Of a DNA stretch of 64,000 bases, positions 35,478-63,445 are shown one piece after another. Below the pieces are notes generated by a model. The model saw only the letters and a program-made list of their open reading frames with translations, ran no database searches and was not told the origin of the DNA. Position 1 is the first letter of the stretch. Every line of letters starts with the position of its first letter. Source of the DNA: a virus (taxonomy: Duplodnaviria > Heunggongvirae > Uroviricota > Caudoviricetes). The DNA lies in the IMG/VR virus record IMGVR_UViG_3300031555_002904; one strand, given 5' to 3'. The position numbers and the translations under genes were made by a program.

Positions 35478-35545
35478 TTAAAAAGTCTTTCTTGATTTTT
35501 ATAAAAAAATATGTTATAATATTTATGTAAGATAAAGGAAAGGAA

Positions 35546-35941
35546 ATGATAGCGATGGAAAAACGATATTACTTCGATAAACCAAAGCAAGTTGTTTTTG
35601 CCGACCCGGAAAATCCGGGAGATTGGCTGTGTGGTATCGCATACCGTGATGAGGTAATTTGCTCCTGTTGTGGTGGCGTATTCGAGATCGATGAAGTGGT
35701 GAAGACCGCTGCGGAAGACGGCGTCGTCAATCCTTTTTATCTGTATGAGGATTGGAGCGATCTGACCGATGATATTTGCGGCGGCGTGCTTCCGGAAGGA
35801 TTACAGTTCAGCGACAGCGAAGAGAATCCTGGGATCGTGGAGACCGTAAAAGTCGTTGGTTACGAGCAGATGATGTTCGAAGACGAGATTGATAAGGTCG
35901 GCGCATTTTTGACTGAGGCTTCTGAAAATCCTGCTGAATAA
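35546..35941 (+). CDS. hypothetical protein
   Basis: after promoter and RBS; GIAY.DEVICSCCGG motif. Confidence 0.7.
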   Translation: MIAMEKRYYFDKPKQVVFADPENPGDWLCGIAYRDEVICSCCGGVFEIDEVVKTAAEDGVVNPFYLYEDWSDLTDDICGGVLPEGLQFSDSEENPGIVETVKVVGYEQMMFEDEIDKVGAFLTEASENPAE

Positions 35942-36053
35942 AAAAATCTTTCTTGATTTTTCAAAAAAAATATGTTATAATATATATGTAAGGTAAAGAA
36001 AGTGATATGCACGGATTGCTTTCTTTCTCCATACAACCTTTTCCATTGTAAAA

Positions 36054-36230
36054 AAGACGGTAACAGCAATTATGACGAGCTTGTGGTGCCGCAGGTCGTT
36101 GGTTCGAGTCCAACCGTCCCTCCCATCACCTGGCAAGGTGGCGTAGGTGAACTACTAAGGGGACCTTCGGGTCCCTGATATGAGGGGCGTAGCTCAGCTG
36201 GATAGAGCAGCGTATGTCAAATTCCGTCTT
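36054..36230 (+). ncRNA. ACAGCAA-stem RNA A, enclosing circularly permuted tRNA-His(GUG)
   Basis: AAGACGG/CCGTCTT termini; 3' tRNA piece 36079-36125 precedes 5' piece 36182-36212. Confidence 0.8.
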
Positions 36231-36612
36231 GGCAAAATAAAAATCAAGGGCAAAAGTGCTTATTTGATTTTTATAAAAAAATATGATATAATATATATGT
36301 AAGGTAAAGGAAATGTGAAAACTCTCCTCAAGAGAAATGACTCGACATTCTGCTAATGCCTCGAGGGTGAAGTACTTGAGAATAAGATCCATTTCTGAGA
36401 AGCTCTCATCAAGTTGACGCAGGTAGCAGCTGGTCCGGGACTTCGATCATCTTCTCACCTTACATATGTGTTATATCAACACAGAAAGGTAGAATCTCGT
36501 ATACCTTGGGTGGGACCAAAAGTACGACGGCAGATGCAAGCGAGAAGTATCCGGGTCTAGCCATGGACTCATGTAACCGGGGAATACCCATCCCAAAATG
36601 GCAACTAAATAT

Positions 36613-36688
36613 TGCCCTGTAGCTCAGTCGGTAGAGCGCCAGACTGTTAATCTGGATGTCGTGGGTTCGAGCCCCACCGGGGCAGCCA
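36613..36688 (+). tRNA. tRNA-Asn(GTT)
   Basis: cloverleaf, CCA. Confidence 0.92.
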
Positions 36689-36956
36689 AGGTCGAGTTTG
36701 TTGGAGTGACGAGAGACCTTAAACTAAACCAACCTCCAGAGGTTCCAGTTATGTAGCTTCTCTGTATAATATAAGCCATAACTATTGGAAAAGCAAAAAT
36801 TCCAGCAATCAACAAATGTGCGGTTAGCTGACCCAAAGCTAAACACTACTCCTTTCATTCGCATGGAGTAGATGGTGGGTTATCATCTGAGAAAAATCCC
36901 TTAAAAGCCACTGTGGTAGATGTGGGCCTGTGGCTGCCATAATCACAGTTCCATCT

Positions 36957-37039
36957 CCGGGTATGGTGGAATTGGTAGACACGTCGGATTTAGGTTCCGA
37001 TGCTCCGCGTGATGGGTTCGAGTCCCTCTACCCGGACCA
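36957..37039 (+). tRNA. tRNA-Leu(TAG)
   Basis: class II cloverleaf, CCA. Confidence 0.9.
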
Positions 37040-37253
37040 CAGGTTTGTAGGTTTTTCCTGTGCGAAGAAAAAAATCACTAAACAGCTCTACGGGCATATA
37101 GCACGAGCTTGAGTCAAAAAAATATGATGTATGCGGGTGGTTGGCAACTCCATCAGTACATAAATAAGTTGCATTTCCATATGGCTGTCCGGGTGGCAGG
37201 GGCAATGGCGCCCCGTAAGAAACAGGAGTTCAACTCTCCAGACGGTCGTCTAT

Positions 37254-37331
37254 GGGGTCATAGCTCCAACTGGAGAGAGCGACTGCCTTGCAAGCAGTAG
37301 GTTGTGGGTTCGAGTCCCACTGGCTCCACCA
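37254..37331 (+). tRNA. tRNA-Ala(TGC)
   Basis: G3.U70, cloverleaf, CCA. Confidence 0.92.
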
Positions 37332-37334
37332 TAT

Positions 37335-37408
37335 GCTGATGTAGCTCAGTCGGGAGAGCGGTCCCTGTAGGAGGGGACAGGCCGGCGGTTCGAGTCCGTC
37401 CATTGGCT
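37335..37408 (+). pseudogene. tRNA-like element with irregular anticodon loop, no CCA
   Basis: D and T arms canonical; loop TGTAGGAG is 8 nt. Confidence 0.5.
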
Positions 37409-37420
37409 TATTACTAAAAG

Positions 37421-37492
37421 ATCCGGTAGTTCAACAAGGCAAGAACGCTCGCAGTAATAGGAGTGATGCAGGTTCGATTCCTGTCCGGAAAA
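37421..37492 (+). pseudogene. degenerate tRNA-like element
   Basis: TCCGG/CCGGA acceptor, GTTC..GAAC D arm, GCAGG-TTCGATT-CCTGT T arm. Confidence 0.45.
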
Positions 37493-37872
37493 AGTCCTCG
37501 TACTCTAGGGGTTTCGAGAATCGGGGCCAGAGCCATACTAATAAGTGGCCTGTTACATACAAAGAAGCCCACTAAATAGGTCTTTTTGTGAGATGGTTTT
37601 TCCCTTACTGACTCCCGAGGTTTGACCGATAACTACAATCTCAAGACGAGAAAGGGAAGTTTGCTGGTAAAGCTAGAAAAACCAGACGATTGGAGACTAG
37701 TCGGATTGAGTTGACGGCCTTGTGTGGGGCGCTAAGAATGCACGGGTGTATGATGGTGACAACGACCAGCCGTAAGTGAGAGTTGTTCGGTGAAGCTGCC
37801 GGAGAGGGAGTGCACGCCCTCGAAATGCGTTTTAGATCGAGGTTTCGCGGAGCCTCTAAAAAACCGCCATAT

Positions 37873-37959
37873 GGGGATATGGTGGAATCGGTAGACGCGC
37901 TAGACTCAAAATCTGGTGACCGAGAGGTCGTGTGGGTTCGAGTCCCACTATCCCCACCA
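37873..37959 (+). tRNA. tRNA-Leu(CAA)
   Basis: class II cloverleaf, CCA. Confidence 0.92.
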
Positions 37960-38090
37960 AAAGGTAACTAAGGAAATTGAAAACGCAATCGTAAGTGCGT
38001 GAGTCCTAAGAGCGAGACACCGAAAGTAGGGCTTTATGCCGCGGCACACTGACACGACCAGTCCCTAGCCGATTAGTTACTTTTATATTT

Positions 38091-38177
38091 GCCTTTGTGA
38101 TGGAATTGGTAGACATCCCAGACTAAGAATCTGGTATCCGCAAGGGTGTGCGAGTTCGAGTCTCGCCAGAGGCACCA
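38091..38177 (+). tRNA. tRNA-Leu(AAG)
   Basis: CCAGA-CTAAGAA-TCTGG; A34. Confidence 0.88.
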
Positions 38178-38308
38178 TAAGAGGAATCCGAAAAATAAAG
38201 AATGTGGAGCGACAGTAGGCGACCTGTGAGTGTAGCTACCAATACCAGGCAACGCGCGTACGGCAGCAGGCAGATGCGGATTAGTTGCAACCCTCTTTTT
38301 TCACTCGC

Positions 38309-38378
38309 ACCAAGAGAGACGGAGGTTCAAATCCTTCCTTCGGCCGAGTAGTTTAGGCAGGTCCAGAACGCTCTTGGT
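38309..38378 (+). ncRNA. permuted tRNA mimic (T arm, closed acceptor hairpin, D arm; YrlA-like topology)
   Basis: CCAAGAG/CTCTTGG closing stem; GGAGG-TTCAAAT-CCTTC; CTTCGGCCGAG; GTTT..GAAC. Confidence 0.6.
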
Positions 38379-38384
38379 TCATAT

Positions 38385-38471
38385 GCCCTTGTGATGGAAC
38401 TGGTAGACTTCTTAGACTCAGAATCTAAGGTCCGAAAGGGCGTGCGGGTTCAAGTCCCGCCGAGGGCACCA
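38385..38471 (+). tRNA. tRNA-Leu(CAG)
   Basis: class II cloverleaf, CCA. Confidence 0.92.
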
Positions 38472-38815
38472 TAGTATAATATCCGGTAGCTAACTCCTGG
38501 CTGGCCTATAAAAAACTGAGAGCTCGTAAAAAATGCATGAGGGTTCGGGAACGGTATTATACTAACCACCGTGGTATGCACGGCAAAAACCGAGGTATAA
38601 GAGTGATATAAAGTGTGTGAGTAAAGCGGAAAGGCTCAATCACCGCCTAGCTGAGGGGCACACGCAGAGTTTGGTCCGGTTCTCTGATTTTTTATCAAAA
38701 CAAGATGGCAGGAAAGTAGAGTCCTGGATATGCGGAGTTCGGTACGCCCCTACTCGCGACATATAAACCTGTGAAGCGCAAGCAGGACTTGTTGAGGTAT
38801 GTGTGATTTATCACA

Positions 38816-38912
38816 GAGTGTGTGGCGAAAAATAAAACTAAACGCGCTCCGGACAACGGGGTGCCGGGCCTGGACGCTTGGCTTGCGGGGGAGGATCCCG
38901 TCGCACTCACCA
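38816..38912 (+). ncRNA. class-II tRNA-like RNA with non-canonical T and anticodon loops
   Basis: GAGTGTG/CGCACTC-ACCA acceptor; long variable hairpin; T loop GGAGGAT. Confidence 0.45.
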
Positions 38913-38988
38913 ATATAGTTGTGGGCGTATAAGACTCAAAACCCTCATCCTCCAATAATACTGCGCAGACTATTGGAGGGCAATATTT

Positions 38989-39067
38989 GGGCTGTGGGAC
39001 TGCTTGGGGTGGTCACCTGTCTGGCAGACAGGACGGCAGATCGGTTCAAATCCGATACGGTCCACCA
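38989..39067 (+). tRNA. tRNA-Ala(GGC)
   Basis: G3.U70; CCTGT-CTGGCAG-ACAGG; atypical D arm. Confidence 0.8.
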
Positions 39068-39126
39068 GGTCTATTTAGACCTCCTTTTCCAAACCATTTA
39101 GACATCGACCGCAAGAAATTGTGATT

Positions 39127-39236
39127 CGCAGACTAGCTTAACTGGATATAGACCCGAGATCGCTTTACCGGTCAACAAAGGGTGAGAGCATCTCCCTTCA
39201 AAGGAGAAGATTGGGGTTCGAGTCCCCAGTCCGTGC
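39127..39236 (+). tRNA. tRNA-like gene with UCA anticodon and ~40-nt D-loop insertion
   Basis: TCTCC-CTTCAAA-GGAGA; TGGGG-TTCGAGT-CCCCA; no encoded CCA. Confidence 0.5.
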
Positions 39237-39335
39237 CGTAGCAAAAATGGTGTCTAGTAAAAAAAATCTTCCTTGATTTTTATAAAAAAATATGTTATAA
39301 TATATATGTAAGATAAAGGAAGAGAGGTAATCAAA

Positions 39336-48403: not shown

Positions 48404-48811
48404 ATGTTATTTGAAACTAATCGTGATAAGGGTCGCGCTGGTATGGCGATAGCAATCGCTTATTTTGGAGCCAATGGATATACAGTAAATGTGCCTCTAA
48501 ATGATACTCAATGGTATGATTTAGTTATTGAAAAAGACGGTGAGTTCAAAACCGTTCAATGTAAAGCAACTGGCAGTGCTGATAATGTAGTTTCTATGAA
48601 GAGTGCGGGTGGCACAAAAGGTAGTGTTTATGATTCTGTACTAAATCATCCTGTTGATTATTTGTTCTGCTTAGATGGCGAAATGCATATGTATGTTATT
48701 CCAGTGCAAGATTTGCGAGATTATGGAGTAAGTAAACAAATTTCTTTGCGTACTCAAAAATCTGCAAATGGACAAGGTTTCCAAACTTATCAATATATGG
48801 TGTCTTTGTAA
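48404..48811 (+). CDS. PD-(D/E)XK endonuclease (I-Ssp6803I/PDDEXK_5-like)
   Basis: KGRAG...GYTV..P..D..YDLVI...VQCK. Confidence 0.75.
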   Translation: MLFETNRDKGRAGMAIAIAYFGANGYTVNVPLNDTQWYDLVIEKDGEFKTVQCKATGSADNVVSMKSAGGTKGSVYDSVLNHPVDYLFCLDGEMHMYVIPVQDLRDYGVSKQISLRTQKSANGQGFQTYQYMVSL

Positions 48812-48819
48812 TACCATAT

Positions 48820-48905
48820 GGGTCAGTAGAGTGTAATTGGTACCACCCCCGACTGTAAATCGGGTTCGTATGACATTGTAGGTTCAAGTCCTACCTGGCC
48901 CACCA
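48820..48905 (+). tRNA. tRNA-Tyr(GTA)
   Basis: CCCGA-CTGTAAA-TCGGG; class II; CCA. Confidence 0.85.
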
Positions 48906-49836
48906 TAGGCTCCATGCCTAGACATAGTTATGCGTACAAGTCAAAATGAAACGCTTAGAGTTATCGTTCTCTTCCAAAAACTTCTACAATCAAATAGAAT
49001 GCCATTCGCTGCGAATATAGGCGGGGTACGATGCAAAGCTCAGAAATGAGTTCCCAAATCCTCGTTAGGGTAATGACGTGAGAACTGCTCCTATGGCTGA
49101 AGGTTCTTGGTGGCATTTGGATTAGGTGAGGTTTTTTCCTTTCGCCTGGTGACTGTGGTGAAACGATACATCCCGGCCCGTGCTGATACGTATCAGACAT
49201 CTAATTCAACGCTCCTTATTGCGTTAGATAAGGTAAGAGTTTGCTGATTTCTCTTTTGACCGGTCTGGTTGAATAATCAGATTGCAGTAGTTGTATGAAT
49301 TGATATTACGATAATTTCTTCTTCATAGTCTACGGTCTATGTTGTAAGCAAATTATCCCTCTGCTGTAAGGTCCCTGGAGCATAAACTGAGTCGGGTTCC
49401 GAATATGAAGATTAAGTCCAGGCGCCCCTACTGCGAAATAAGTAGGTGAGATTGGGTAGCGATAATGATACAGACTCGCAACTGCTATATGATTACATAA
49501 AAGTATAAAAATCTCATTCTTGATTGAGTAGCGCTCGGTAATATAGCCCAATACTGAGGTAAGGCGATGAAAAGCGAAAGATTGATTTTGAGTGGAAAAT
49601 CCATATTGGATCGAAAACAATACCGATGGAAAGTAAAAATACCTCAATTTTGTCACAACACGGATACAAACCCGACAAAGTATGAGCGTTAGGTGGTAGC
49701 ATATGGCGACGGAAAGACCGTTAGCGCATATGGAGTAGGTAGAGTTTGAAATTCAATATGGGTTTTTTCTTGCGGCCGCCCGTCCGTAAAGCGCGCAATA
49801 GTGTGCTTGTCAGCGGATTTGGGCGACCCGTCCGCA
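48906..49836 (+). ncRNA. second candidate large structured ncRNA region
   Basis: ~900 nt without a credible ORF or RBS, rich in hairpins, co-transcribed with tRNAs. Confidence 0.4.
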
Positions 49837-49896
49837 CTTGATTTTTATAAAATTTTTTTGTATAATATATACATAAGAAATGAAAATAAATAAAAA

Positions 49897-49991
49897 AAGA
49901 CCCTTCCTGCAATCTTTTTTCTTGGATAATAATTTTTACTTCAAATGAAAATTTAGCGGTTCGAATCCGCGTAATAAATGAAAAGGGTCTT
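49897..49991 (+). ncRNA. ACAGCAA-stem RNA J (CTGCAA variant) with UCA anticodon-like loop and T arm
   Basis: AAGACCCTT/AAGGGTCTT termini; TTTTA-CTTCAAA-TGAAA; GCGG-TTCGAAT-CCGC. Confidence 0.65.
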
Positions 49992-49997
49992 GTTTAT

Positions 49998-50072
49998 GCC
50001 CCGATAGTTCAATCGGTAAAACAGTGGATTTGTAATCCTCCGTTCTCGGTTCAAGTCCGGGTCGGGGCTCCA
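49998..50072 (+). tRNA. tRNA-Thr(TGT)
   Basis: cloverleaf, CCA. Confidence 0.88.
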
Positions 50073-50148
50073 ATGGTGAAAACTCGTTCTGGGAGCAAAC
50101 TTACGAGTTACCCTTTTTGACACTCCCACAAATAAAAAAGAGTAAAAG

Positions 50149-50511
50149 GTGAAGAAAATGAGATATCCAGTTGAAAAGTACAATATTGTTGTGCATCAGC
50201 ATAAGGACTACAAGACCACTGAAATCATCGCTTATTCCACTTACGCCGGTAAGGTTGTAAAGGGAAATGCAATCGTTCACGAGAATGATACCTACGATGA
50301 AGAGAAGGGCAAGAAGTTGGCTATTGCCCGCTGCGCTGAGAAGATCGCCCGCAAGCGTCAGGCTCGTTCCGCTCGCTTGCTGAAGAAGGCTCATGAGCAG
50401 CTGAAGATGGCCCAGAAGTATGTTGATGATATGGCTCAATACAATGCTGATGCCTGTGCTGAGGTTTGTGAAGCTCAGAGTGATCTCCAGAAGATTCTGG
50501 CAAAGATGTAA
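50149..50511 (+). CDS. hypothetical phage protein
   Basis: STYAGK.V.G.A..HENDTYDEEKGKKLAIARC; terminator after. Confidence 0.75.
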   Translation: MKKMRYPVEKYNIVVHQHKDYKTTEIIAYSTYAGKVVKGNAIVHENDTYDEEKGKKLAIARCAEKIARKRQARSARLLKKAHEQLKMAQKYVDDMAQYNADACAEVCEAQSDLQKILAKM

Positions 50512-50548
50512 TTCGATAGAAGGGGCGCTATGCCCCTTCAATAGAGAT

Positions 50549-50637
50549 GGACAGGTGGTAGAGTCTGGCTTATTACACCGGTCTTGAAAACCGGCGGGCG
50601 TAATGCTCCGGGGGTTCGAATCCCTCCCTGTCCGCCA
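50549..50637 (+). tRNA. tRNA-Ser(TGA)
   Basis: class II cloverleaf, CCA. Confidence 0.92.
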
Positions 50638-50714
50638 TCAGTTGTAGTTCAAGAAGAAGAATACCTTCGTCGACGTCGAGGAGATGTTTGGTGCTACCCG
50701 CCCAAACCGACTGA
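50638..50714 (+). pseudogene. degenerate tRNA-like element
   Basis: TCAGTTG/CGACTGA acceptor; D-like, anticodon-like and T-like arms with non-canonical loops. Confidence 0.4.
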
Positions 50715-50744
50715 GCCTAAACTAAATAGAGAGGATGATGTGAT

Positions 50745-51074
50745 TTGATTGGTGCTTATAATAGAGATGTATCAATTCGTAAAGCCAAGAGAAAGCGTAG
50801 AATTGACATTCAGCACAAAACCAGTTATAATGATGGAAAACCTGTTCCTTGGTATAATAATCTCCATCAGTATTCAAAAAACAAAATCCATTGTTCTTGT
50901 CCCGATTGCAATACCAAAACTCGCAACAAGGGTTCCAAGAGACACAGAAGCGGAAACTATAATCAAGCAATTCTTTATCGTGCCTCCGATTTGCGGAAGG
51001 TAGTTGCTATGGATGAAGATTTGCGCGAAGCCGGTTATTTTGCGCCTAAACACAAGCGCAATCGTTACGCATAA
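50745..51074 (+). CDS. basic hypothetical protein
   Basis: HQYSKNKIHCSCPDC motif; GAGGA RBS. Confidence 0.65.
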   Translation: MIGAYNRDVSIRKAKRKRRIDIQHKTSYNDGKPVPWYNNLHQYSKNKIHCSCPDCNTKTRNKGSKRHRSGNYNQAILYRASDLRKVVAMDEDLREAGYFAPKHKRNRYA

Positions 51075-51269
51075 TGGGGCACCGCAAGATGCGGCCGCAG
51101 CCTCCTCGTTACTTTTGGCCCGACACAGATGGTTGTTGGTGTTGTAAAAATCGAAATGGTTGTTCGGGGTGTAAATTTTTGAAACGCTATATTGCTGAAG
51201 GTAAAGGTCGCAATAAAAGAAAAATTTAGCGAAATGAAAAAATTTTTATAGAAAGGAAAATGAGAAAAT

Positions 51270-51536
51270 ATGGCTAGTATTAAAGTTTTTTAGAATAATC
51301 GCTACCAATCTCATTATGTTCAATTTGTAGCAGACACTGCAGATGATGTAAAACTTTTAAAGGTAGCAGAACTCGCTATGGGTAGTGAAGTATATGTTAT
51401 TCAAGAAAAAAGAACTTATATTCTTGGTAGCGACAAACTCTGGTATTCTAAGGCGGTAAATGATGACGCAATTATTGAGTGTGATTGCGTTGAAGAATCT
51501 ACTATCTGGGAAGATTTGCCTCAACCCAATAATTGA
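51270..51536 (+). CDS. hypothetical protein (1 in-frame TAG=Gln at 51291)
   Basis: MASIKVF*NNRYQSHYVQFVADTADDVKLL...AMGSEVYVIQEKRTYILGSDKLW. Confidence 0.65.
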
Positions 51537-51574
51537 CTTTATAAAAAATTTTTGATATAATATAATATAAGATA

Positions 51575-51703
51575 AAGGCATAAACAGCAATTTATTGATT
51601 AAGCCTGCCAAGCCGGAAGTCGTAGGTTCGAATCCTACCGCCCCTGCCATATAGGGGTCGTAGCTCAGATGGTAGAGCGCCGTTAAATATCAAATTGTGC
51701 CTT
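51575..51703 (+). ncRNA. ACAGCAA-stem RNA K, enclosing circularly permuted tRNA-Gly(GCC)
   Basis: AAGGCATA/TGTGCCTT termini; 3' piece 51603-51649 (ends CCA) precedes 5' piece 51653-51682. Confidence 0.82.
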
Positions 51704-51712
51704 GTGGAATAT

Positions 51713-51787
51713 TCCGGTGTCGTTCAATGGCTAGGACGGCGGGCTCTAACCCCGCATATCTCTGTTCGAGTCAGAGCGCCGGTGCCA
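51713..51787 (+). tRNA. amber suppressor tRNA(CTA), Gln-like
   Basis: GCGGG-CTCTAAC-CCCGC; unpaired 1:72, G73, CCA. Confidence 0.9.
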
Positions 51788-51862
51788 TGGGGGTTAGCGT
51801 AGCGGTAGCGCGGCGGTCTCTAAAACCGTTGTGGCTGGGTTCGAATCCCAGGCCCCCCGCCA
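51788..51862 (+). tRNA. amber suppressor tRNA(CTA), Gln-like
   Basis: GCGGT-CTCTAAA-ACCGT; TGGGGGT acceptor like the two tRNA-Gln genes; G73, CCA. Confidence 0.9.
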
Positions 51863-51921
51863 TTGTGCGGAAAGTTGATTTTTATAAAAAAATATGATAT
51901 AATATATATAGAAGATAAAGA

Positions 51922-51997
51922 AAGGCTCATACAGCAAATTTCACTTTTTCTAACCGACATAAAATTGGTAATGCTTGAGAGAAAAAAAATGAGCCTT
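51922..51997 (+). ncRNA. ACAGCAA-stem RNA L (anticodon-like hairpin only)
   Basis: AAGGCTCAT/ATGAGCCTT termini; ACCGA-CATAAAA-TTGGT. Confidence 0.72.
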
Positions 51998-52005
51998 GTA
52001 AATCT

Positions 52006-52092
52006 GCCGGCGTGGTGGAATAGGTAGACACCAGGGACTTAAAATCCCTTGGGCCTGTGCCCGTACCGGTTCGAGTCCGGTCGCCGGCACCA
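52006..52092 (+). tRNA. tRNA-Leu(TAA)
   Basis: class II cloverleaf, CCA. Confidence 0.92.
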
Positions 52093-52169
52093 CTTATCTT
52101 TATTGAAAGGATGTGTTTCCAATGTGGAGGTTGAGTGTCTTCTAACTACCGTAAAGGAGGTTAGAAGTA

Positions 52170-52466
52170 ATGAGTAGATCATTCAAACACACCCCTCGCT
52201 CGGGTGATACAAAAGACAAATTCTTTAAAAGATATGCTAATCGCAAAGTGCGCCGTCTTCCCATCGACGAGCATCCTAAAGGTAATACATACAAAAAGGT
52301 GTTTTGCCAATATGATATTTGCGACTATGAAACAGTCGGCACTTCTTTCGAGCAATATTGGGAGAGTCTCGTCAAAAGATGGTACGAGTGGGATTGGAGA
52401 TATTCCGAATTTCCCGATCGCGAAGAAGCATATCAAGAATATCGTCGTTGGTTCATTAGAAAATGA
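52170..52466 (+). CDS. hypothetical phage protein
   Basis: MSRSFKHTP...KRYANRKVRR...YKK...YDICDY. Confidence 0.7.
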   Translation: MSRSFKHTPRSGDTKDKFFKRYANRKVRRLPIDEHPKGNTYKKVFCQYDICDYETVGTSFEQYWESLVKRWYEWDWRYSEFPDREEAYQEYRRWFIRK

Positions 52467-52585
52467 GTTGATTTTTCAAAAATTTTTTGGTATAATAATA
52501 GTACAGGAAATAAAGAAAAAATCTTCTCCCCTTTCTTTAAAGTTCCTATCTTCTCGGGGGCATTCCTCGGAGTGCCCCATTCTTT

Positions 52586-52660
52586 GCGGGTGTAGTACAT
52601 CGGCTAGTGCGCCTGCCTTCCAAGCAGGATAGAGGGGTTCGATTCCCCTTACCCGCTCCA
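52586..52660 (+). tRNA. tRNA-Gly(TCC)
   Basis: cloverleaf, CCA. Confidence 0.9.
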
Positions 52661-52787
52661 TATAAATAATTCGCCAGGTGTTGATACTGGTCCGTCTATT
52701 GCGGATAGAAGCTCGAGGAGGGCTAGCTCGCAAATTCCGTTATTAACAGGTGGCCTCGACGGAAAAGTAATTATTTATAGAAACACT

Positions 52788-52921
52788 GAGAGCCATACAG
52801 CAAACCAGCTTGTACTTAATAGTACAGATCGCTACTTCAAGTAGCTTCTATGATGACTTAACAGTCGCGTTTTTAAATGATAGAAAGAAGAATGGTTTTA
52901 CTAAAAAAACTTTCGGCTCTC
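52788..52921 (+). ncRNA. ACAGCAA-stem RNA M (degenerate permuted tRNA-like arms)
   Basis: GAGAGCC/GGCTCTC termini; hairpins TGTACT..AGTACA and GCTAC-TTCAA-GTAGC. Confidence 0.65.
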
Positions 52922-53012
52922 CGGGAATGTGATAATCAGTAGTAGATGTGATGAGGCTCTCGACACTCATCATCGCATAAATGAAAGTTACCACCAAAGG
53001 AGAGTATTTATA

Positions 53013-53106
53013 CAAGACATATACAGCAAAATTTTCAAAATGATAATACTCAATATTTGACAAACAAACATAGAGAATGATCTTTTTAGAAACATCTTAT
53101 GTCTTG
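53013..53106 (+). ncRNA. ACAGCAA-stem RNA N
   Basis: CAAGACATA/TATGTCTTG termini. Confidence 0.68.
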
Positions 53107-53150
53107 CGGGATGGGTCAACAAAAGGCCCATCCCACTTTTCCCTTCATAT

Positions 53151-53698
53151 GCGCCGCTAGCTCAGCAGGTTTCAGAGCACCGCCCTTTTCACACAGGAGA
53201 AGAAAGTATTTTCCCAGGAGGTGAATTAAGTGTTAAACACTCATTTCCAAGGTGAAATTACTGAACTCCAAGTTGCCGAATCGTTTTTGACATTGGGGTA
53301 TCAAGTGTGTAAGCCTTTGGTATCTGATAGTCGCTATGACTTTATCGTTGATATCAACCATCAGTTATATCGTATTCAAGTAAAGACATCATCATTGAGT
53401 GAAGATGAAGATTATATTGAGTTTAAGACTCAATCCTCTCATACAAATACTCAAAAGACAGTATATCAATCTTATTCTGCGGATGACATTGATTATTTTG
53501 CTACAATGCATAATCATCAGTGCTATCTTGTTCCAGTTGATAAAGCTGGTAGTCGTTCTTGTAGATTGCGTTTAAAGCCTACAAAGAATGGTCAGACTAA
53601 GAATATCAATTTCGCAAAAGATTTCAAACTTGAAGATACTTTCATCGAATGACTGAAAAAGGCGGGTGTCCTGGGTTCGAATCCCAGGCGGCGCACCA
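53151..53698 (+). tRNA. tRNA-Lys(TTT) split in the anticodon loop by a ~469-nt endonuclease-encoding insertion
   Basis: 5' half 53151-53189 (..CCGCC-CTTTT), 3' half 53659-53698 (AA-GGCGG..GCGGCGC-ACCA); halves pair perfectly. Confidence 0.8.
53230..53652 (+). CDS. PD-(D/E)XK homing-endonuclease-like protein inside tRNA-Lys
   Basis: GEITE...GYQVCKP..DSRYDFIVD...RIQVKT...Y..DDIDYFA; GGAGGTG RBS. Confidence 0.85.
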   Translation: MLNTHFQGEITELQVAESFLTLGYQVCKPLVSDSRYDFIVDINHQLYRIQVKTSSLSEDEDYIEFKTQSSHTNTQKTVYQSYSADDIDYFATMHNHQCYLVPVDKAGSRSCRLRLKPTKNGQTKNINFAKDFKLEDTFIE

Positions 53699-53931
53699 AG
53701 TCATTATTGCTCGACCGGTCTCGCCTTAGTGCACTGGGAGAAATTCCTCGAGACCGCCCTATGGGGTGCGAATAAGGTTTTACAGTTGGAACTAAGTGGC
53801 AATCGGATATCTGGAAATCAGATCCGACCTAAGTCCAAAGATTAGCCTTATTCGCTGTTTTTTATTTTATTTGATTTTTATAAAAAAATATGTTATAATA
53901 TATATGTAAGATAAAGAAAGGGGAAAATCCT

Positions 53932-54135
53932 ATGGAAATCAATATTGACAAGGAAATTGATAATCATAGATGCCCTACAATATGTTTATGCACTGTGGCA
54001 ACAACTTGCTATGAGCCAATAGAAAGAGAGCAAAGATGTTATCGTTGTTGGAAAGGATATTGCCAAGAGCATAACATTACAATTATCTACGATAATATAC
54101 CACGCCCGTTTAGCTCAGCTGGTCAGAGCACCTGA
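53932..54135 (+). CDS. small Cys-rich protein; 3' end overlaps tRNA-Lys(CTT)
   Basis: after promoter and RBS; CPTIC..CYRC..C. Confidence 0.45.
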   Translation: MEINIDKEIDNHRCPTICLCTVATTCYEPIEREQRCYRCWKGYCQEHNITIIYDNIPRPFSSAGQST

Positions 54136-54180
54136 CTCTTAATCAGGGTGTCGAGGGTTCGAATCCCCCAACGGGCACCA
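54104..54180 (+). tRNA. tRNA-Lys(CTT)
   Basis: cloverleaf, CCA. Confidence 0.92.
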
Positions 54181-54597
54181 GGGTAGCTCCTCACAGGGAG
54201 GATAAGTAATGTAAGTAGTACGGAAGTAAAAACTGCGATGTGGAGATAAACGCCCACTGTCGCCTTGCGTGCGCGAAACCGGTGTAGCGTGGATGGGGTC
54301 TCTCCAGAAGGCTACATGAAAAAAGCGAGGTTCGAGTCCTCGAGTATCCACCATTATCCCGCGGAATGCGGTGGCGATGAAGCCAGGGCTTGTCCGGAAG
54401 TGCTGGTGGAGCCTCTTCCCAAGGTTGGCAGTATACGAATAAAGAGGGGTTAACCTTAGTGCCGAGACTAAGACTTGAACGGTCAAAAAACTGCAATCAT
54501 ATTAGGTACAGTTTACTAGTGACTGGGTAATATGAGCCTCTTGGAAGAAGGATTAGTGTAATACACGCAATACAGCACGCCAAGAGGCAATTCACAC

Positions 54598-54674
54598 GGG
54601 CCTTTAGTACAATTGGCTAGTGCGCCCGGCTCATAACCGGGACTATCTGGGTTCGAGACCCAGGGGGCCCACCA
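54598..54674 (+). tRNA. tRNA-Ile2/Met(CAT)
   Basis: GGGCCTT acceptor; CCCGG-CTCATAA-CCGGG typical of Ile2. Confidence 0.85.
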
Positions 54675-54688
54675 AGAGGAGGACGCAT

Positions 54689-55153
54689 ATGAAAGTTTAT
54701 ACATCTTATTTCTATAAGATACGATTTTTCAAACCGAATATGATTCCTATTTCTACTGCGTTATGGGACCCCAAATGGTATCATCAAAATCGAGACCAAG
54801 GACATTGGTTCATTGATAAGAATGGTGTTATCAATGGATTGCGGGCGCCCGACTTCGCGCCCGGTAAGGTGGCGACCGCAGTATCTAATTGCGGAAGTTG
54901 TTCTGATAAGAATCCCGATCAATGTAATTTCCTCAAAGCATATGCTCATCAGCTAAGTCTTTTGGAAATCAATGATATTATGACTCGTACACGCAATTTA
55001 TGCGAAGCTGTCCGTTCAGTAGTCGGATATGAGGGTGAACCAATTCCAGTATTTATTGTGCATGAGGCTCCTGATAATCCGTGCTCTGAGCGAGTTGTAA
55101 TTCAAAATTATTTCCGCTCTAATGGCATAGAATGTGAAGAGTGGCAAGAATAA
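54689..55153 (+). CDS. DUF488-like protein
   Basis: MKVYTSYF...P.W...FAP...HE.PD.PCSERVVI. Confidence 0.6.
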   Translation: MKVYTSYFYKIRFFKPNMIPISTALWDPKWYHQNRDQGHWFIDKNGVINGLRAPDFAPGKVATAVSNCGSCSDKNPDQCNFLKAYAHQLSLLEINDIMTRTRNLCEAVRSVVGYEGEPIPVFIVHEAPDNPCSERVVIQNYFRSNGIECEEWQE

Positions 55154-55155
55154 AT

Positions 55156-55241
55156 GTCAGCGTAGTCAAGTGGCTTAAGACCCCGGTCTGCAAAACCGCG
55201 TGCCTTCAATGGCGTGAGTTCGAATCTCACCGCTGACTCCA
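55156..55241 (+). tRNA. tRNA-Cys(GCA) with unusually long variable arm
   Basis: CGGT-CTGCAAA-ACCG; U73; CCA. Confidence 0.8.
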
Positions 55242-55264
55242 AATTTAACAATGAGGTATGATGT

Positions 55265-55510
55265 ATGTTTAAAGGCTATAAAATCAAATATGTGACCTAT
55301 GGATGGGGCAAAGATGGCCCCAAGTTGTACGGTGTTTTGATGATAAAATCAGATCGTGGTTGGGTTGTTGAAGTATGGCCTTGCGACACGCATGGCTCCC
55401 AAGTGTCCGATCCTATTGAGTGGGATGATGGACTCTCTTGGTGGAGCGCTCGCAAACTATTTTATAAATGGTATGCTGAGTATGACCGATATGTAAATAA
55501 TCGTATATAA
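55265..55510 (+). CDS. hypothetical protein
   Basis: GAGGT RBS. Confidence 0.55.
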   Translation: MFKGYKIKYVTYGWGKDGPKLYGVLMIKSDRGWVVEVWPCDTHGSQVSDPIEWDDGLSWWSARKLFYKWYAEYDRYVNNRI

Positions 55511-55562
55511 TTCTGCTTAGCAGGTTATAAATATACTATAAAAATTGAAAGGATGTTTAATT

Positions 55563-56768
55563 ATGGGACTTACTGAAAATGGACGGTCTGCACTAACACA
55601 CATTAAACAGCACTGTTTACTCACTTCTTTTTCTGCAAAAGAGTTGAGTGATGCCTGCGGAGTAAAAATTGCTCCTGCCACATTAACTGGCGTTGTAAAT
55701 CATGGATACCTCAACCGACTGGGAGGCTCTCCGGTGCGCTATGAAGTCGTAGATGATTTCTTGGATTTGATGAAAATCCTTGAGGAAGAAGAGAATTCCA
55801 AAGGATGCGATAATTCCAATCTACGTACCGCAAAAAGAGTAAAAAATGATGAATTTTATACTCGCTATGAAGATATCGAAGCTGAGGTTATGAAATATCG
55901 TAAGTATTTCTATAATAAGGTTGTATATCTACCTTGTGATGATCCAGCTGAGAAAAAGAGCGAATTCTGGTCTTTCTTTGTTAACCGGTTTGATGCTTTT
56001 GGTCTAAAGAAACTAATTGCCACTCATTATGATGAGAATGGCAAGGCATATAAGATTTGGATTGATGCTGATACCACTGGCGACGGCGCCATTGATGATA
56101 GCGATGCTTTGCAAGAGGATTTGACTGGAAATGGTGATTTCCGCAGTCCTGAGTGCATTGCTATTTTGGAAGAGTGCGATATTGTTTGCACCAATCCTCC
56201 TTTCTCTATGTTTAGAGAATTCATTGATACAATTCTCACTCACAACAAGCAGTTCCTTATTATTGGCAGTAAAAATGCTTATACCTATAAGGAAATTTTT
56301 ACCCGTATTTGGCGAAATGAAATTTGGCCTGGCTACAATGCAGTTCATAAGTTTATCCAACCCGATGGATCTATTAAATCTTTCGGTAATATTGGTTGGT
56401 TTACCAATCTACCCACCTCTAAGAGAGAGGAAGAATTGATCCTTACTAAAACTTATGATCCCGCCATTCATCCTAAATACGATAATTATGACGCGATTAA
56501 TGTGGATCGTGTTGTAGATATTCCAATGAATTACGATGGAGAAATGGGTGTTCCTATTTCCTTTATTGATAAATATAATCCTGATCAGTTTGAACTGGTT
56601 GGAGGTTTCAATGGATATGCTCATCCAGATTATGAGCATGGTTTAATCTGTGGTACTCCTACCACTTATCAAGATAGTAAGACTGGTAAAACTAAAACTT
56701 GGAACGGTCCTACTGTTGATGGGCAGACTAAATATTTTAGAATCTTGATCCGACATAAAAAGTCTTAA
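55563..56768 (+). CDS. adenine-specific DNA methyltransferase, EcoRI family, with N-terminal HTH-like extension
   Basis: AKRVKNDEFYT, PCDDP, GDFRS.EC, DIVCTNPPFSMFREF, MGVPISFIDKYNPDQFE. Confidence 0.88.
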   Translation: MGLTENGRSALTHIKQHCLLTSFSAKELSDACGVKIAPATLTGVVNHGYLNRLGGSPVRYEVVDDFLDLMKILEEEENSKGCDNSNLRTAKRVKNDEFYTRYEDIEAEVMKYRKYFYNKVVYLPCDDPAEKKSEFWSFFVNRFDAFGLKKLIATHYDENGKAYKIWIDADTTGDGAIDDSDALQEDLTGNGDFRSPECIAILEECDIVCTNPPFSMFREFIDTILTHNKQFLIIGSKNAYTYKEIFTRIWRNEIWPGYNAVHKFIQPDGSIKSFGNIGWFTNLPTSKREEELILTKTYDPAIHPKYDNYDAINVDRVVDIPMNYDGEMGVPISFIDKYNPDQFELVGGFNGYAHPDYEHGLICGTPTTYQDSKTGKTKTWNGPTVDGQTKYFRILIRHKKS

Positions 56769-56782
56769 AAGGAGATCTACAT

Positions 56783-57973
56783 ATGTTTCAGCGGAATAAT
56801 ATGAAAACTGAACGCATTTTTGTTAAAGTGCGTGATTTGTGCGCCGGCTATGTAAATAATTCCGATACCAATGAAGAGCGTGGCGTTTATGCCTATGGCG
56901 GTAAATTGTGTGTCCGTCCAGAATTCCAGCGTTCTTTCGTATATAACCGTGAACAGGCCAATGCAGTAATTGATACTGCATTGGCAAATCTCCCTCTCAG
57001 CATTATGTATTGGGTAGATAACGAAGATGGTACTTATGATTGTCTCGATGGTCAGCAAAGAACTATCAGTTTGTGTGATTTTATTTCTGGTGATACAACT
57101 CAGACCAGTTTTAAAGCAAACTGGTTGAGAAATGGCAAAGAAACATATTTTGACATCCTTGAACAGTATGATCCAGATTTAGCTGAAGCATTGCTTGATT
57201 ATGAAATTGAGGTTTATCTGTGCAAAGGCACCAAGAGAGAGCGGTTAGATTGGTTTAATCGTATCAATATCGCTGGTGCACAATTGTCTGCACAAGAAAT
57301 CCGCAATGCCAATCACACTAGCGTGTGGCTAACAGACGCTAAGAGATATTTTAGTCGAGCAAGTAAAAATGGTTCCTGCCCTGCAGAGGTTTTGTTTAAG
57401 AAATACAGTAAAAAAGATGCAAACCGACAAGAGCTTTTGGAGCAAGTAATCTATTGGCGAGTCAATGATAAGAGTGATGAAGCAATTTGCGCGTACATGG
57501 AACAGCATATGAATGATGCAGATGCTTCTGATTTGTGGAATTATTTCAATGAAGTAGTTGCATGGACTAAAGCCAATTTTGAATATTATGATGACGGCTT
57601 TAAAACTGTTGAATGGGGCTGGCTATATAACAAGTACAAAGATGAGGAGTTAGATCCCAGCGAAATTGCTGATCTACTCAAGGAATTATTCAGCGCTAAG
57701 CTTGCTAAGGAATTGACCTGTACGAAAGCTGCTATCGTTGAGTATTGTATTACTAAAAATGAGCAGTTACTGACACATCGTAAATTTACTGATAGTCAGC
57801 GTAAATTACTCTACAATAGACAAAACGGTATTTGTCCCGATTGCGGGCAGTCATTTGCTATGGCTGATATGCATGCTCATCATATTCAGTCTTGGCGTCA
57901 AGGTGGCACTACTGAGCTTGCAAATGGAGTAATGCTTTGTACTGAATGTCATCATCATCGACACGGCACTTAA
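56783..57973 (+). CDS. DUF262 (GmrS/ParB-like) plus C-terminal HNH nuclease
   Basis: RPEFQRSFVY, LDGQQRTISL, FNRIN..G..L; CPDC..HAHH..GG...LCTECH. Confidence 0.85.
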   Translation: MFQRNNMKTERIFVKVRDLCAGYVNNSDTNEERGVYAYGGKLCVRPEFQRSFVYNREQANAVIDTALANLPLSIMYWVDNEDGTYDCLDGQQRTISLCDFISGDTTQTSFKANWLRNGKETYFDILEQYDPDLAEALLDYEIEVYLCKGTKRERLDWFNRINIAGAQLSAQEIRNANHTSVWLTDAKRYFSRASKNGSCPAEVLFKKYSKKDANRQELLEQVIYWRVNDKSDEAICAYMEQHMNDADASDLWNYFNEVVAWTKANFEYYDDGFKTVEWGWLYNKYKDEELDPSEIADLLKELFSAKLAKELTCTKAAIVEYCITKNEQLLTHRKFTDSQRKLLYNRQNGICPDCGQSFAMADMHAHHIQSWRQGGTTELANGVMLCTECHHHRHGT

Positions 57974-58147: not shown

Positions 58148-59098
58148 ATGAGTAATGCATTTCTGAATGGAATGAAGACTGCTACCAACTACACTCTGAC
58201 TGAGAATGGTGCAGTTACCCACAAGTCTACTATGAATGCTCTGCTGGATCTCTTCGCCATGGGTGCGGCCTACCGTACTCGTTCTGACGAGGATGTTATC
58301 CTGCTGTTCAAGAACGCCTTCGCCGAGGATCCTACCTATGCGCTGAAGTGTCTGTTCTACATCCGTGACGTGCGTGGTGGCCAGGGTGAGCGTCGTTTCT
58401 TCCGTGTTGCGACCAAGTGGCTGGCTTCCTACAATACCGACGCTATGCAGCGCAACCTGATTCACGTTCCTGAGTTCGGTCGCTGGGATGACCTGTTCGT
58501 GTTCATCGGTACTCCTCTGGAGACCCAGGCTCTGAACATCGTTAAGCACCAGCTGGCTCTGGACGTCCAGTGTAAGACTCCCTCTCTGCTGGGTAAGTGG
58601 ATGCCTTCCGAGAACACCAGCTCTGCTAAGACTCGTAAGACTGCCGCAAAGGTTCGTGCCTTTATGGGTATGACTCCCAAGCAGTATCGTAAGACTCTGT
58701 CTGTTCTGCGTGCCCGCATCAACGTCCTGGAGCGTCTGATGTCTGAGGGTCGTTGGGATGAAATCGAGTTCGACAAGATTCCTTCCAAGGCAGGTCTAAA
58801 GTATAAGAACGCCTTTGCTCGTCATGACATTGAGCGTATGAAGCGCAATCCCGAGGTTAAGACTTATGCGGATTTCGCAAAGGATACTACTACCAAGGTT
58901 AATGCCAAGGACCTGTATCCTTATGAGGTTGTTGACAAGGCAACCCGTTGCTTCCATGCCGAGGACATTGGAGTTGGCAACATTTCCTATGTGTCTGGTA
59001 TGTCTCCTTCCATCTTCGAGCAGATTATGTCCGGCAAGACTGGTCTGGATTTGATGTTTGAGAAGCTGGACTCCCCTCGTTATGAGTGTATCCGCTAA
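58148..59098 (+). CDS. DUF2828 (TROVE/Ro60-like) protein, apparently lacking most of the vWA region
   Basis: TENGA..ST..LLDLF, FYIRDVRGGQGERRFF, EFGRWDDL, SLLGKWMPSE, YRKTLS.LR, LYPYEVV; C-terminal VSG.SPSIF. Confidence 0.82.
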   Translation: MSNAFLNGMKTATNYTLTENGAVTHKSTMNALLDLFAMGAAYRTRSDEDVILLFKNAFAEDPTYALKCLFYIRDVRGGQGERRFFRVATKWLASYNTDAMQRNLIHVPEFGRWDDLFVFIGTPLETQALNIVKHQLALDVQCKTPSLLGKWMPSENTSSAKTRKTAAKVRAFMGMTPKQYRKTLSVLRARINVLERLMSEGRWDEIEFDKIPSKAGLKYKNAFARHDIERMKRNPEVKTYADFAKDTTTKVNAKDLYPYEVVDKATRCFHAEDIGVGNISYVSGMSPSIFEQIMSGKTGLDLMFEKLDSPRYECIR

Positions 59099-60329: not shown

Positions 60330-60431
60330 TGGGAGACTTTGTGATTTGTTCTCAATGTGTCTATTGGGAAGACTGTGAAATGAAAGAAAGCCGAGACGGC
60401 TGTTATTTTGGAGAAACGGAGGATAATCTCA

Positions 60432-60791: not shown

Positions 60792-60792
60792 T

Positions 60793-62053: not shown

Positions 62054-62071
62054 AGAAAGGAGGGGGTCGCA

Positions 62072-63381: not shown

Positions 63382-63445
63382 GGCTCCCTTTTTTGATTTT
63401 TATAAAAAAATATGTTATAATATATATAGAAAAGTGGAAAGGAGA

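Follow-up and report, generated by a model that had tools for sequence, protein, structure and literature searches.

A handle-closed family of tRNA-mimicking RNAs in a phage tRNA array, probably Y-RNA-like and partnered by the Ro60-like DUF2828 protein

Ro60-Y RNA particles occur in animals and in roughly 5% of bacteria, and what they do there is a matter of debate. Here we compare them with a system found in a 64,000-nucleotide stretch of a giant gut phage (Caudoviricetes; IMG/VR record IMGVR_UViG_3300031555_002904; this whole stretch is called the window below), where thirteen RNA elements within a tRNA array share a closing helix and the heptamer ACAGCAA, together termed the handle, and a fourteenth site is a circularly permuted form in a tRNA-Tyr-like gene. 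As the handle stands beside a Ro60-shaped gene, that of the DUF2828 protein, and beside RNA-repair enzymes in many phages and bacteria, it probably marks an undescribed particle of the Y-RNA type. We therefore consider it likely that the handle RNAs are a new Y-RNA-like class that works with a Ro60-like DUF2828 partner in a tRNA-damage response. The closest described systems are Ro60 or Rsr with Y RNAs, including the YrlA RNAs of bacteria and mycobacteriophages (Rfam RF02553; Chen et al. 2014, PMC4201824), and the Salmonella rsr-yrlBA-rtcBA operon (Hughes et al. 2020, PMC7790460).

The likeness to Ro60-Y RNA particles lies in a ring-type protein of TROVE-plus-vWA-like build, in RNA 5' and 3' ends that are predicted here from sequence to pair into a docking stem, and in RNA genes placed beside the protein gene on the same strand. 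Several handle elements also carry the permuted tRNA-like module of YrlA (T arm, closed acceptor, D arm). As in the Salmonella operon, RtcB appears as an operon partner under a ligand-sensing regulator, which is a WYL-domain protein here and RtcR there. The protein, however, belongs to DUF2828 (PF11443) and not to TROVE (PF05731); the docking motif is an (A/U)AGRC helix with ACAGCAA, whereas that of YrlA is a GNCGAAN0-1G helix (PMC4201824); the cargo enclosed by the handle is built of modules and in many cases amounts to no more than a hairpin or an anticodon arm; and, unlike the case of Y RNAs, each genome has many paralogous elements (13 here), set within its tRNA arrays. With another protein family, another docking motif and modular cargo, the handle and DUF2828 apparently represent a second, undescribed branch. 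A full-text literature search returned no description of the family, with one review of RNA-repair systems outside its reach.

The window is the minus strand of positions 193889-257888 of a 402-kb virus record (G000:C1) that consists of two syntenic genomes of ~200 kb, head to tail, with 65-88% nucleotide identity. Each half carries its own tRNA array and its own DUF2828 gene, and the assembly is probably chimeric or concatenated, with two related phages joined in place of a single 402-kb genome. As it is built of two syntenic genomes, a second, diverged copy of the whole tRNA array is present, which we used as a natural comparison for the elements of the window and which holds thirteen further elements of the same build.

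At the 13 sites of the window the handle is a perfect helix of 7-10 bp, the 5' strand of which ends 0-2 nt before ACAGCAA, and the elements closed by it span 61-177 nt. The outer five base pairs of the helix are (A/U/G)AGRC paired with GYCU(U/A/C), the inner pairs are variable, and a G follows the 3' strand; in minimum-energy folds the helix is kept and ACAGCAA is unpaired. Perfect ACAGCAA-type handles are present in 11 elements, and two more use the variants CCAGCAA and CCTGCAA. The exact heptamer occurs 18 times in the window, compared with 8.7 ± 3.2 times in shuffles; of the 14 plus-strand copies at 36-53 kb, 12 belong to 11 elements and the internal form, and one is inside the ROOL RNA. 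A sequence-only reading of this DNA had listed 14 sites, and each of them, when read and searched for a partner of the bases before ACAGCAA, holds the feature described. Its claim of a covarying stem is confirmed by the shuffle tests given below, except that the stem is not free in sequence, its outer five pairs being constrained. Of the two variants it named, CCAGCAA is found at 45572, and the one given as CTGCAA is read here as CCTGCAA, at 49897.

A pattern scan of IMG/VR (AAGGC-NNNN-ACAGCAA-N40-70-GCCTTG) matched at least 112 contigs. Stem positions 6-9 are left free by this pattern, and positions 6-7 are complementary in 79% of 118 viral matches, against ~14% by chance. A seed alignment of 60 short elements, 59 from other genomes and one (element 8) from the window, has three pairs that never vary and six in which both sides have changed. 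It holds 79 compensatory cells compared with 28.5 ± 4.1 in shuffles, a value reached in 0 of 500 shuffles, and in slid controls pairing falls to 26-54%. The covariance model built from this alignment, R1, recovers 11 of the 13 window elements at E ≤ 0.01, all on the plus strand, with no other match at that threshold in both strands of the 64-kb window (128 kb searched); the two that it misses are 36054, which has a long cargo, and 52788, which has a deviant GAGAGCC handle. All seven handle pairs also covary over the 106 R1 matches from the bacterial and archaeal loci described below (126 cells compared with 33.4 ± 4.0 in shuffles), in an alignment fitted to R1, which favours pairing but not compensatory diversity. 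The covariation noted by the sequence-only reading is supported by these alignments, which are drawn almost entirely from other genomes.

In an Rfam scan at E ≤ 1 over 35-56 kb, no family fits the handle. The comparison returned only sub-threshold matches to YrlA, four in all, which fall on elements 1 (36072-36238), 10 (51614) and 6 (45358) and across two ordinary tRNAs; their scores are given in Table 1 where they concern an element. The YrlA gathering threshold of 69 bits is reached by none of the window elements, and the basal stem of the model aligns to flanking bases and not to the handle. The handle system would resemble Ro60-Y RNA in its working, yet falls outside YrlA on score, docking motif and TROVE gene.

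Table 1. Handle elements of the window and other features of the locus. The heptamer is ACAGCAA unless a variant is given; positions are those of the window unless marked as record or L225.
Feature	Position	Strand	Handle (5'/3' strand) or family	Score	Cargo and surroundings
Element 1	~36054-36231	+	AAGACGG/CCGTCTT, ACAGCAA	YrlA 38.6 bits over full model length; absent from R1 matches	Permuted tRNA-His-like cargo, broken at anticodon-stem 29/30: GUG loop, T arm, acceptor 3' strand with C73 and CCA, 56-nt three-hairpin spacer, G-1, acceptor 5' strand, D arm
Element 2	41427-41543	+	TAGGCGCA/TGCGCCTA	R1 34.0 bits, E 5e-6	Unpermuted CCA-less tRNA-Asn(GUU)-like body with A/U-rich acceptor; tRNA-Phe begins 5 nt downstream; copy in second array has same cargo and a compensatory stem change
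Element 3	43204-43282	+	TAGACAGA/TCTGTCTA	R1 34.2 bits	Small cargo without tRNA features; begins 2-3 nt after tRNA-His, ends 9 nt before tRNA-Arg(UCU)
Element 4	43905-44018	+	AAGGCTC/GAGCCTT	R1 30.8 bits	CCA-less tRNA-Gly(UCC)-like body; promoter-like site 43833-43861; tRNA-Ile 6 nt downstream
Element 5	44447-44585	+	TAGGCACA/TGTGCCTA	R1 34.7 bits	Hairpin, T arm, loop-closed acceptor, D arm, anticodon arm with CCA (Trp) anticodon; permutation break in variable region, unlike 36054 and 51575; copy in second array has anticodon GAU and identical stem
Element 6	45357-45467	+	AAGGCAC/GTGCCTT	YrlA 26.4 bits; R1 38.5 bits	YrlA-like: hairpin, T arm, acceptor closed by CCA-containing loop, D arm; no anticodon arm; tRNA-Gln begins ~5 nt downstream
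Element 7	~45570-45634	+	AGACGCA/TGCGTCT, variant CCAGCAA	R1 25.4 bits, E 8e-4	Minimal cargo
Element 8	47174-47242	+	AAGGCAG/CTGCCTT	R1 44.1 bits (copy in seed)	Minimal cargo; own promoter-like site 47128-47156
Internal (circularly permuted) form	47930-48069	+	Loop-closed helix with one mismatch (47974-47997), then ACAGCAA (47998-48004)	R1 partial match 47988-48034, E 0.2	tRNA-Tyr(GUA)-like gene with open acceptor and CCA; anticodon stem broken by ~53 nt containing the handle; kept in second array, anticodon there UAA
Element 9	~49896-49992	+	AAGACCCTT/AAGGGTCTT, variant CCTGCAA	R1 20.9 bits, E 0.01	Hairpins and T arm; promoter-like site 49838-49866; tRNA-Thr 6 nt downstream
Element 10	51574-51704	+	AAGGCATAA/TTGTGCCTT	YrlA 33.5 bits on tRNA-like core; R1 29.4 bits	Permuted tRNA-Gly(GCC)-like body, break 29/30, acceptor strands joined by CCA-UAUA; promoter-like site 51533-51561; tandem CUA-anticodon tRNAs 9 nt downstream
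Element 11	51921-51998	+	AAGGCTCAT/ATGAGCCTT	R1 46.1 bits, E 5e-9 (outside seed)	Small hairpin cargo; promoter-like site 51875-51903; tRNA-Leu(UAA) 8 nt downstream
Element 12	52788-52961	+	GAGAGCC/GGCTCTC (deviant), ACAGCAA	Absent from R1 matches	At least three hairpins; deviant handle kept in second array; membership in the family uncertain
Element 13	53013-53106	+	CAAGACATA/TATGTCTTG	R1 29.9 bits	A/U-rich cargo; terminator-like hairpin directly after, 53108-53134
DUF2828 gene	58148-59098	+	Pfam PF11443	104.2 bits (cut-off 29)	Ro60-like, 316 aa
cREC_REC gene	60408-60791	+	Pfam PF20274	66 bits	Cyclic-phosphate-processing receiver domain
Calcineurin-like phosphoesterase gene	63434-64000	+			Extends past window end
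Major Vault Protein homologue	record 183019-185535 (L225:1020-3536)	- (L225)	Pfam MVP_shoulder, Vault_3		838 aa
Tandem CUA-anticodon (amber-reading) tRNAs, two	51713-51862				Directly after permuted element 10
drum RNA	42605-42715		drum	78 bits	Inside tRNA array
OLE RNA, partial match	53768-53855		OLE, model positions 437-594 only	53.4 bits (threshold 50)	After endonuclease open reading frame
ROOL RNA, full-length	47309-47922		ROOL	327.8 bits

The placement of the elements bears on how they might be produced. Six window elements have a strong promoter-like site (10-12 of 12 positions matching, TG in most) at a distance of 14-75 nt upstream, in agreement with the earlier remark that several copies start right after a promoter of their own, and 7 of the 13 elements end 4-9 nt before the next tRNA. 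Among 162 elements in viral loci, 59 have a tRNA 4-15 nt downstream, and 20 follow one at a distance of at most 5 nt. RNA-library contigs from four metatranscriptomes cover 35500-55400 and are deepest over ROOL. Handle RNAs would be transcribed as part of the phage tRNA operons, some as spacers and others from a promoter of their own, and could be released by RNase P at the tRNA 4-15 nt downstream and by 3'-end processing of the upstream tRNA. The simplest reading is that these two activities free the elements as discrete RNAs with paired ends.

The same positions, at the 5' end of transcription units or between tRNAs and 4-15 nt before the next one, would also fit stems that merely clamp the tRNA operon during processing or for stability, by sequestering leader or spacer, protecting 5' ends or guiding a host RNase, with no protein partner involved. 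An invariant single-stranded heptamer together with three fixed pairs, conserved from Bacillota to Gammaproteobacteria hosts, nevertheless exceeds the needs of a clamp. In addition, the same element stands directly upstream of DUF2828 in bacterial WYL-DUF2828-RtcB loci, which mostly have no tRNA array in their 6-kb flanks, and we judge this explanation to be very unlikely.

The linkage between handle and DUF2828 extends well beyond the window. DUF2828 is encoded in 41 of 48 searchable handle-bearing viral records, and in 16 of the 18 of these that are at least 90% complete, compared with a base rate of 711 in 50,697 phage records (1.4%). We also chose 80 bacterial and archaeal DUF2828 loci, including some from metagenome-assembled genomes, by protein similarity alone. 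The 106 R1 matches at these loci are all on the gene strand, with 102 upstream of the gene, 4 downstream and none within it, and a simple pattern scan likewise gives 100 matches on the gene strand versus 1 on the opposite strand. The nearest handle is within 500 nt of the DUF2828 start in 37 of 47 handle-positive loci. When 2.2-kb segments around phage DUF2828 genes were considered, 10 of 20 contained handles, ~300-700 nt from the gene; these share its strand without exception, and nearly all of them precede it. The partnership that had been put forward from the sequence alone is supported by co-occurrence in phages against the 1.4% baseline, and in 47 of the 80 loci with a consistent strand.

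Cultured phages in which DUF2828 abuts a tRNA array are a Felix O1-like coliphage, Listeria LMSP-25, Bacillus phage Izhevsk and Mycobacterium phage Tyson. Izhevsk has six clear R1 matches between the tRNA array and the DUF2828 gene, while LMSP-25 has one clear and two weak matches, with RtcB near DUF2828. In Tyson, a band-7 protein and a phosphoesterase are encoded near DUF2828.

In 19 of the 47 handle-positive loci, the nearest handle ends at most 100 nt before the start codon, on the same strand. This arrangement would suit a cis-regulatory site, that is, an operator in the DUF2828 mRNA leader for self-regulation, which the array copies would then titrate. No element precedes the DUF2828 gene in the window, however, and the occurrence of up to six handles at a locus, of downstream elements and of structured, tRNA-like cargo suits free RNAs better. 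As the sole role of the handle we find cis regulation highly improbable; it is compatible with, rather than opposed to, a Y-RNA-like system.

Full-length phage homologues of DUF2828 have ~500 aa and combine a conserved, arginine-rich helical N-terminal half with a vWA domain containing MIDAS. A full-length type of DUF2828, cut by the contig end, is encoded elsewhere in the record and scores above the PF11443 cut-off. Searching PDB sequences with the DUF2828 profile yields only a weak vWA match, and so the link to Ro60 needs comparison at the level of fold. The AlphaFold model of a full-length homologue, which is 45% identical to the window copy, has a pLDDT of 87 and a pTM of 0.87. In a Foldseek search with this model, the 13 best PDB matches are all Ro60/TROVE structures (E 1e-7 to 5e-4, TM 0.34-0.59), from Thermus phage, Xenopus, human and Deinococcus proteins, and the match spans the whole length of the model at an identity of ~11-14% in the structural alignments. 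On the evidence of the model, DUF2828 is a distant, fold-level relative of Ro60/TROVE, since the Pfam TROVE model fails on the genome. The gene that the sequence-only reading had named as the partner is indeed a DUF2828 gene, but a deletion variant; its product keeps the conserved N-terminal helical-repeat domain and the last ~45 residues, and the whole vWA/MIDAS domain is gone by an in-frame deletion.

Additional insight is gained from the neighbourhood of DUF2828, which is one of RNA repair. Unbiased clustering of open reading frames from the 80 bacterial loci places RtcB directly downstream of DUF2828 in 30, on the same strand and with a median gap of 27 nt, and two WYL-domain regulators upstream of it in 21-22. 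In the phage, DUF2828 is followed by a gene cluster for RNA end healing and repair, with the cREC_REC gene as its first recognisable member; the cluster spans 60408-64000 of the window and L225:4279-12456. Past the window lie genes for a second phosphoesterase, a Thg1-like 3'-5' polymerase, a sigma factor (phage sigma-70), an RNase T-like exonuclease, an RNA ligase bearing the PHA02142 OB domain, and a homologue of the Major Vault Protein (MVP). RtcB and a tRNA splicing endonuclease (PF01974) were searched for in the phage genome, and neither was found. The MVP homologue lies ~13 kb past the DUF2828 stop codon and matches residues 320-790 of rat and human MVP (phmmer, E 2e-23). It is also present in 8 of 48 other handle-bearing records (9 of 49 in total), always 3-7 kb from DUF2828 and on the same strand.

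The cargo itself is variable and shows tRNA parts, which range from whole L-shaped bodies and permuted bodies, the acceptor of which is closed or bears CCA, to T arms and lone anticodon stem-loops. The types named by the sequence-only reading are correctly assigned, with permuted bodies at 36054, 51575 and 44448, CCA-less bodies at 41428 and 43906, where the acceptor of a whole tRNA body runs into the handle, and small hairpins in the rest; 45358 is a YrlA-like module that has no anticodon arm. A module of T arm, acceptor-like stem and D arm is present at 36054, 44448, 45358 and 51575 and absent in at least six other window elements. Permuted tRNAs with a break at 29/30, after the third anticodon-stem pair, number five in the record (36054, 51575 and three in the second array), and these encode their CCA and have identity elements that look plausible (G-1:C73 for His, G73 for Asp). 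When elements from every source are pooled (228), a tRNA-type hairpin of 5 bp and 7 nt occurs in 87, compared with 6 in shuffled cargo; these hairpins comprise T arms and anticodon arms of many specificities, Lys-UUU being the commonest anticodon. By strict criteria, 50 of the 228 have a T arm and at least 11 are permuted.

Comparison of the two arrays provides direct evidence that cargo anticodons change while the arms stay fixed. The anticodon swaps from GUG to GGG, CCA to GAU, GCC to UCC and GUA to UAA on a constant arm, and 7 of 15 anticodon bases differ between the arrays, compared with 2 of 64 other anticodon-arm bases (Fisher p 6.5e-5). Every cargo anticodon in the window also duplicates that of a canonical tRNA of the same array. 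Because of this redundancy, and because the anticodon changes while the arm does not, we argue that the tRNA-like cargoes mimic tRNAs and do not serve in decoding.

Permuted tRNA genes of Cyanidioschyzon merolae and non-canonical tRNA introns of archaea are spliced at a bulge-helix-bulge. The handle elements are similar to both in the 3' half that lies upstream of the 5' half, the flanks that pair and the interruption at 29/30, and differ in that no bulge-helix-bulge and no splicing endonuclease are found here, that the same handle also encloses non-tRNA cargo, and that the cargo is redundant with normal tRNAs. It is conceivable that the handle similarly marks RNA for excision, after which the tRNA parts would be ligated at 29/30 into functional tRNAs, in the case of the permuted genes through a circular intermediate joined by a phage or host RNA ligase. 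The shared 29/30 break of the five permuted elements (two in the window), with their encoded CCA and identity elements, would agree with such a maturation, as would the internal form at 47930, in which the handle interrupts the anticodon stem of a tRNA whose CCA end is open, the RNA ligase and Thg1-like enzyme encoded by the phage, and the presence of RtcB, a member of the tRNA-splicing ligase family, after DUF2828 in 30 of 80 loci. Most cargoes, however, are not tRNA halves; acceptors may be loop-closed and CCA-less (44448 and copies in the second array), the handle is also attached at the acceptor end or the variable region, and orthologous elements switch anticodon and acceptor between arrays, with every anticodon redundant. 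Upon inspection the junction is three-way, and its two single-stranded linkers leave the helper helix from one and the same end. The RNA-library contigs contain no credible joint at the 29/30 junctions, the joints found being tRNA-to-tRNA chimeras. The YrlA of M. smegmatis, a true Y RNA, is cut by RNase P and given CCA in vivo (PMC4201824), and a CCA-bearing acceptor therefore need not mean a translating tRNA. Maturation thus fails as a general account, because the cargo consists mostly of something other than halves, is variously attached, redundant and shifting in identity, and because the bulge-helix-bulge, the endonuclease and RtcB are missing from the phage; we regard it as very unlikely, although it may apply to the five elements broken at 29/30 and to the internal form.

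Two details of the cargo may be noted in their own right. The three-hairpin insert of element 1 (loops UGGCAA, GUGAA and UUCG) is at 36125-36180, between the CCA and the 5' end, and recurs in the second array (oriented 399305-399365) inside a Gly-type permuted mimic, which is the only further copy in all fetched loci. In element 2 (41444-41465, 41520-41534), the acceptor-like stem of the tRNA-Asn mimic has two U-rich tracts in competition for a single A-rich one (UUUUUCUUUU / AGAAAAAA / UCUUUUCUUU), an arrangement that is kept in the second array and could form an alternative pairing or a U.A-U triple.

Several observations weigh against a Y-RNA-like particle with DUF2828 at its centre. All 20 other phage homologues aligned have the vWA domain with its MIDAS motif (DxSGS...T...D), and the window copy is without it; the model of the window copy has confident helical repeats and no significant PDB match, its best TROVE match in the fold search being at rank 17 (E 0.36), and the Pfam TROVE profile (PF05731) has no match in the 402-kb record. 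No handle adjoins the DUF2828 gene of the window, the nearest being 5 kb upstream. Elsewhere, two complete handle-bearing records have no DUF2828, 33 of the 80 DUF2828 loci have no handle within 6 kb, and the co-occurrence in phages may be partly phylogenetic, as many records may belong to few clades. The RNA-library data consist of assembled contigs, without ends or strand. By strict criteria, 173 of the 228 elements have no recognisable T or D arm, and tRNA mimicry is consequently a trait of a subset, unusually rich in this phage. The core of the sequence-only reading, that of Y-like RNAs with a binding motif of their own and a TROVE-like DUF2828 partner, is supported by the linkage, the fold, the repair neighbours and the sub-threshold YrlA matches.

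In a Y-RNA-like system of this kind, the DUF2828 ring would dock on the handle in the way that Ro60 binds the terminal stem of a Y RNA. The particles could then act in a tRNA-damage response during infection, where they may offer tRNA-like bait or adaptors to anticodon-directed nucleases or, alternatively, to the co-encoded end-healing, Thg1-like and ligase enzymes. It could further be speculated that the handle serves as an address tag that loads swappable tRNA baits on a Ro60-like ring, with the anticodons evolving against host nucleases, the repair enzymes healing, and the MVP homologue contributing a vault-like shell. We consider this extended proposal rather unlikely, but if it is true, quick anticodon change would let the phage intercept or report whichever host anticodon nuclease it met, and the assembly would be a viral, prokaryotic-world counterpart of the eukaryotic vault, with MVP, a TROVE protein and small RNAs.

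The eukaryotic vault has a shell of MVP, the TROVE domain protein TEP1 and vault RNAs. What the present system has in common with it is a full-length MVP homologue, encoded 3-16 kb from a TROVE-like gene and on its strand, in genomes that also encode small structured RNAs. The MVP homologue is, however, absent from most handle-bearing phages, and a shell is hypothetical here; handle RNAs are not known to resemble vault RNAs, and DUF2828 is not known to carry telomerase-associated domains. Its proximity nonetheless hints at a deeper link between TROVE protein, small RNA and vault shell. Among phages, the T4 tRNA cluster includes the stable RNAs species 1 and 2 (rnaC/rnaD), whose function is unknown. 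As would be the case for the handle RNAs, they are small stable RNAs other than tRNAs that are transcribed and processed along with a phage tRNA array; to our knowledge they have no common handle and no protein partner.

The branch is spread over phages of Bacillota, Pseudomonadota, Actinomycetota and Campylobacterota and over gut and rumen bacteria, tied to tRNA arrays or RNA ligases, and DUF2828 is annotated as unknown in most of the records. The window is distinctive for how many elements it holds, for forms that are permuted and bear CCA or lie inside a tRNA, for the turnover of anticodons between the arrays, for the vWA-less protein, and for the nearby cluster with Thg1-like enzyme, ligase and MVP homologue. 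The Y-RNA-like reading gives testable content to the role of non-tRNA RNAs in phage tRNA clusters, to that of DUF2828 in Felix O1-like, Listeria P100-like, Staphylococcus and Enterococcus myoviruses, and to the ways, beyond spare tRNAs, in which phages answer tRNA-cleaving defences.

The remaining features concern the array and its surroundings. The window contains 42 tRNA genes at 35.3-55.2 kb, all on the plus strand, of 81 in the two arrays of the record, and a megablast of the array against 50,697 phage records gave short tRNA matches only and no close relative. Two open reading frames for PD-(D/E)XK endonucleases (PDDEXK_5) are inside the array, at 48404-48811 and 53230-53652. Between the array and DUF2828, at 55545-57973, there is an EcoRI-type adenine methylase with a GmrSD_N/HNH nuclease gene, a pair that is apparently absent at the corresponding place after the second array. 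The tandem pair of CUA-anticodon tRNAs is also present in the second array, yet recoding of TAG, TGA or TAA brings no clear lengthening of open reading frames within the window. The partial OLE match may be spurious. Pairing between ACAGCAA and ROOL was considered and rejected, as the complementary UUGCUGU at 47700 lies in a variable ROOL insert and the ACAGCAA at 47901 belongs to the closing region of ROOL itself. The ROOL RNA starts 67 nt after element 8 and ends directly before the tRNA-Tyr-like gene with the internal handle, and in four RNA-library assemblies, gut and bovine, the depth over it far exceeds that of any other stretch.

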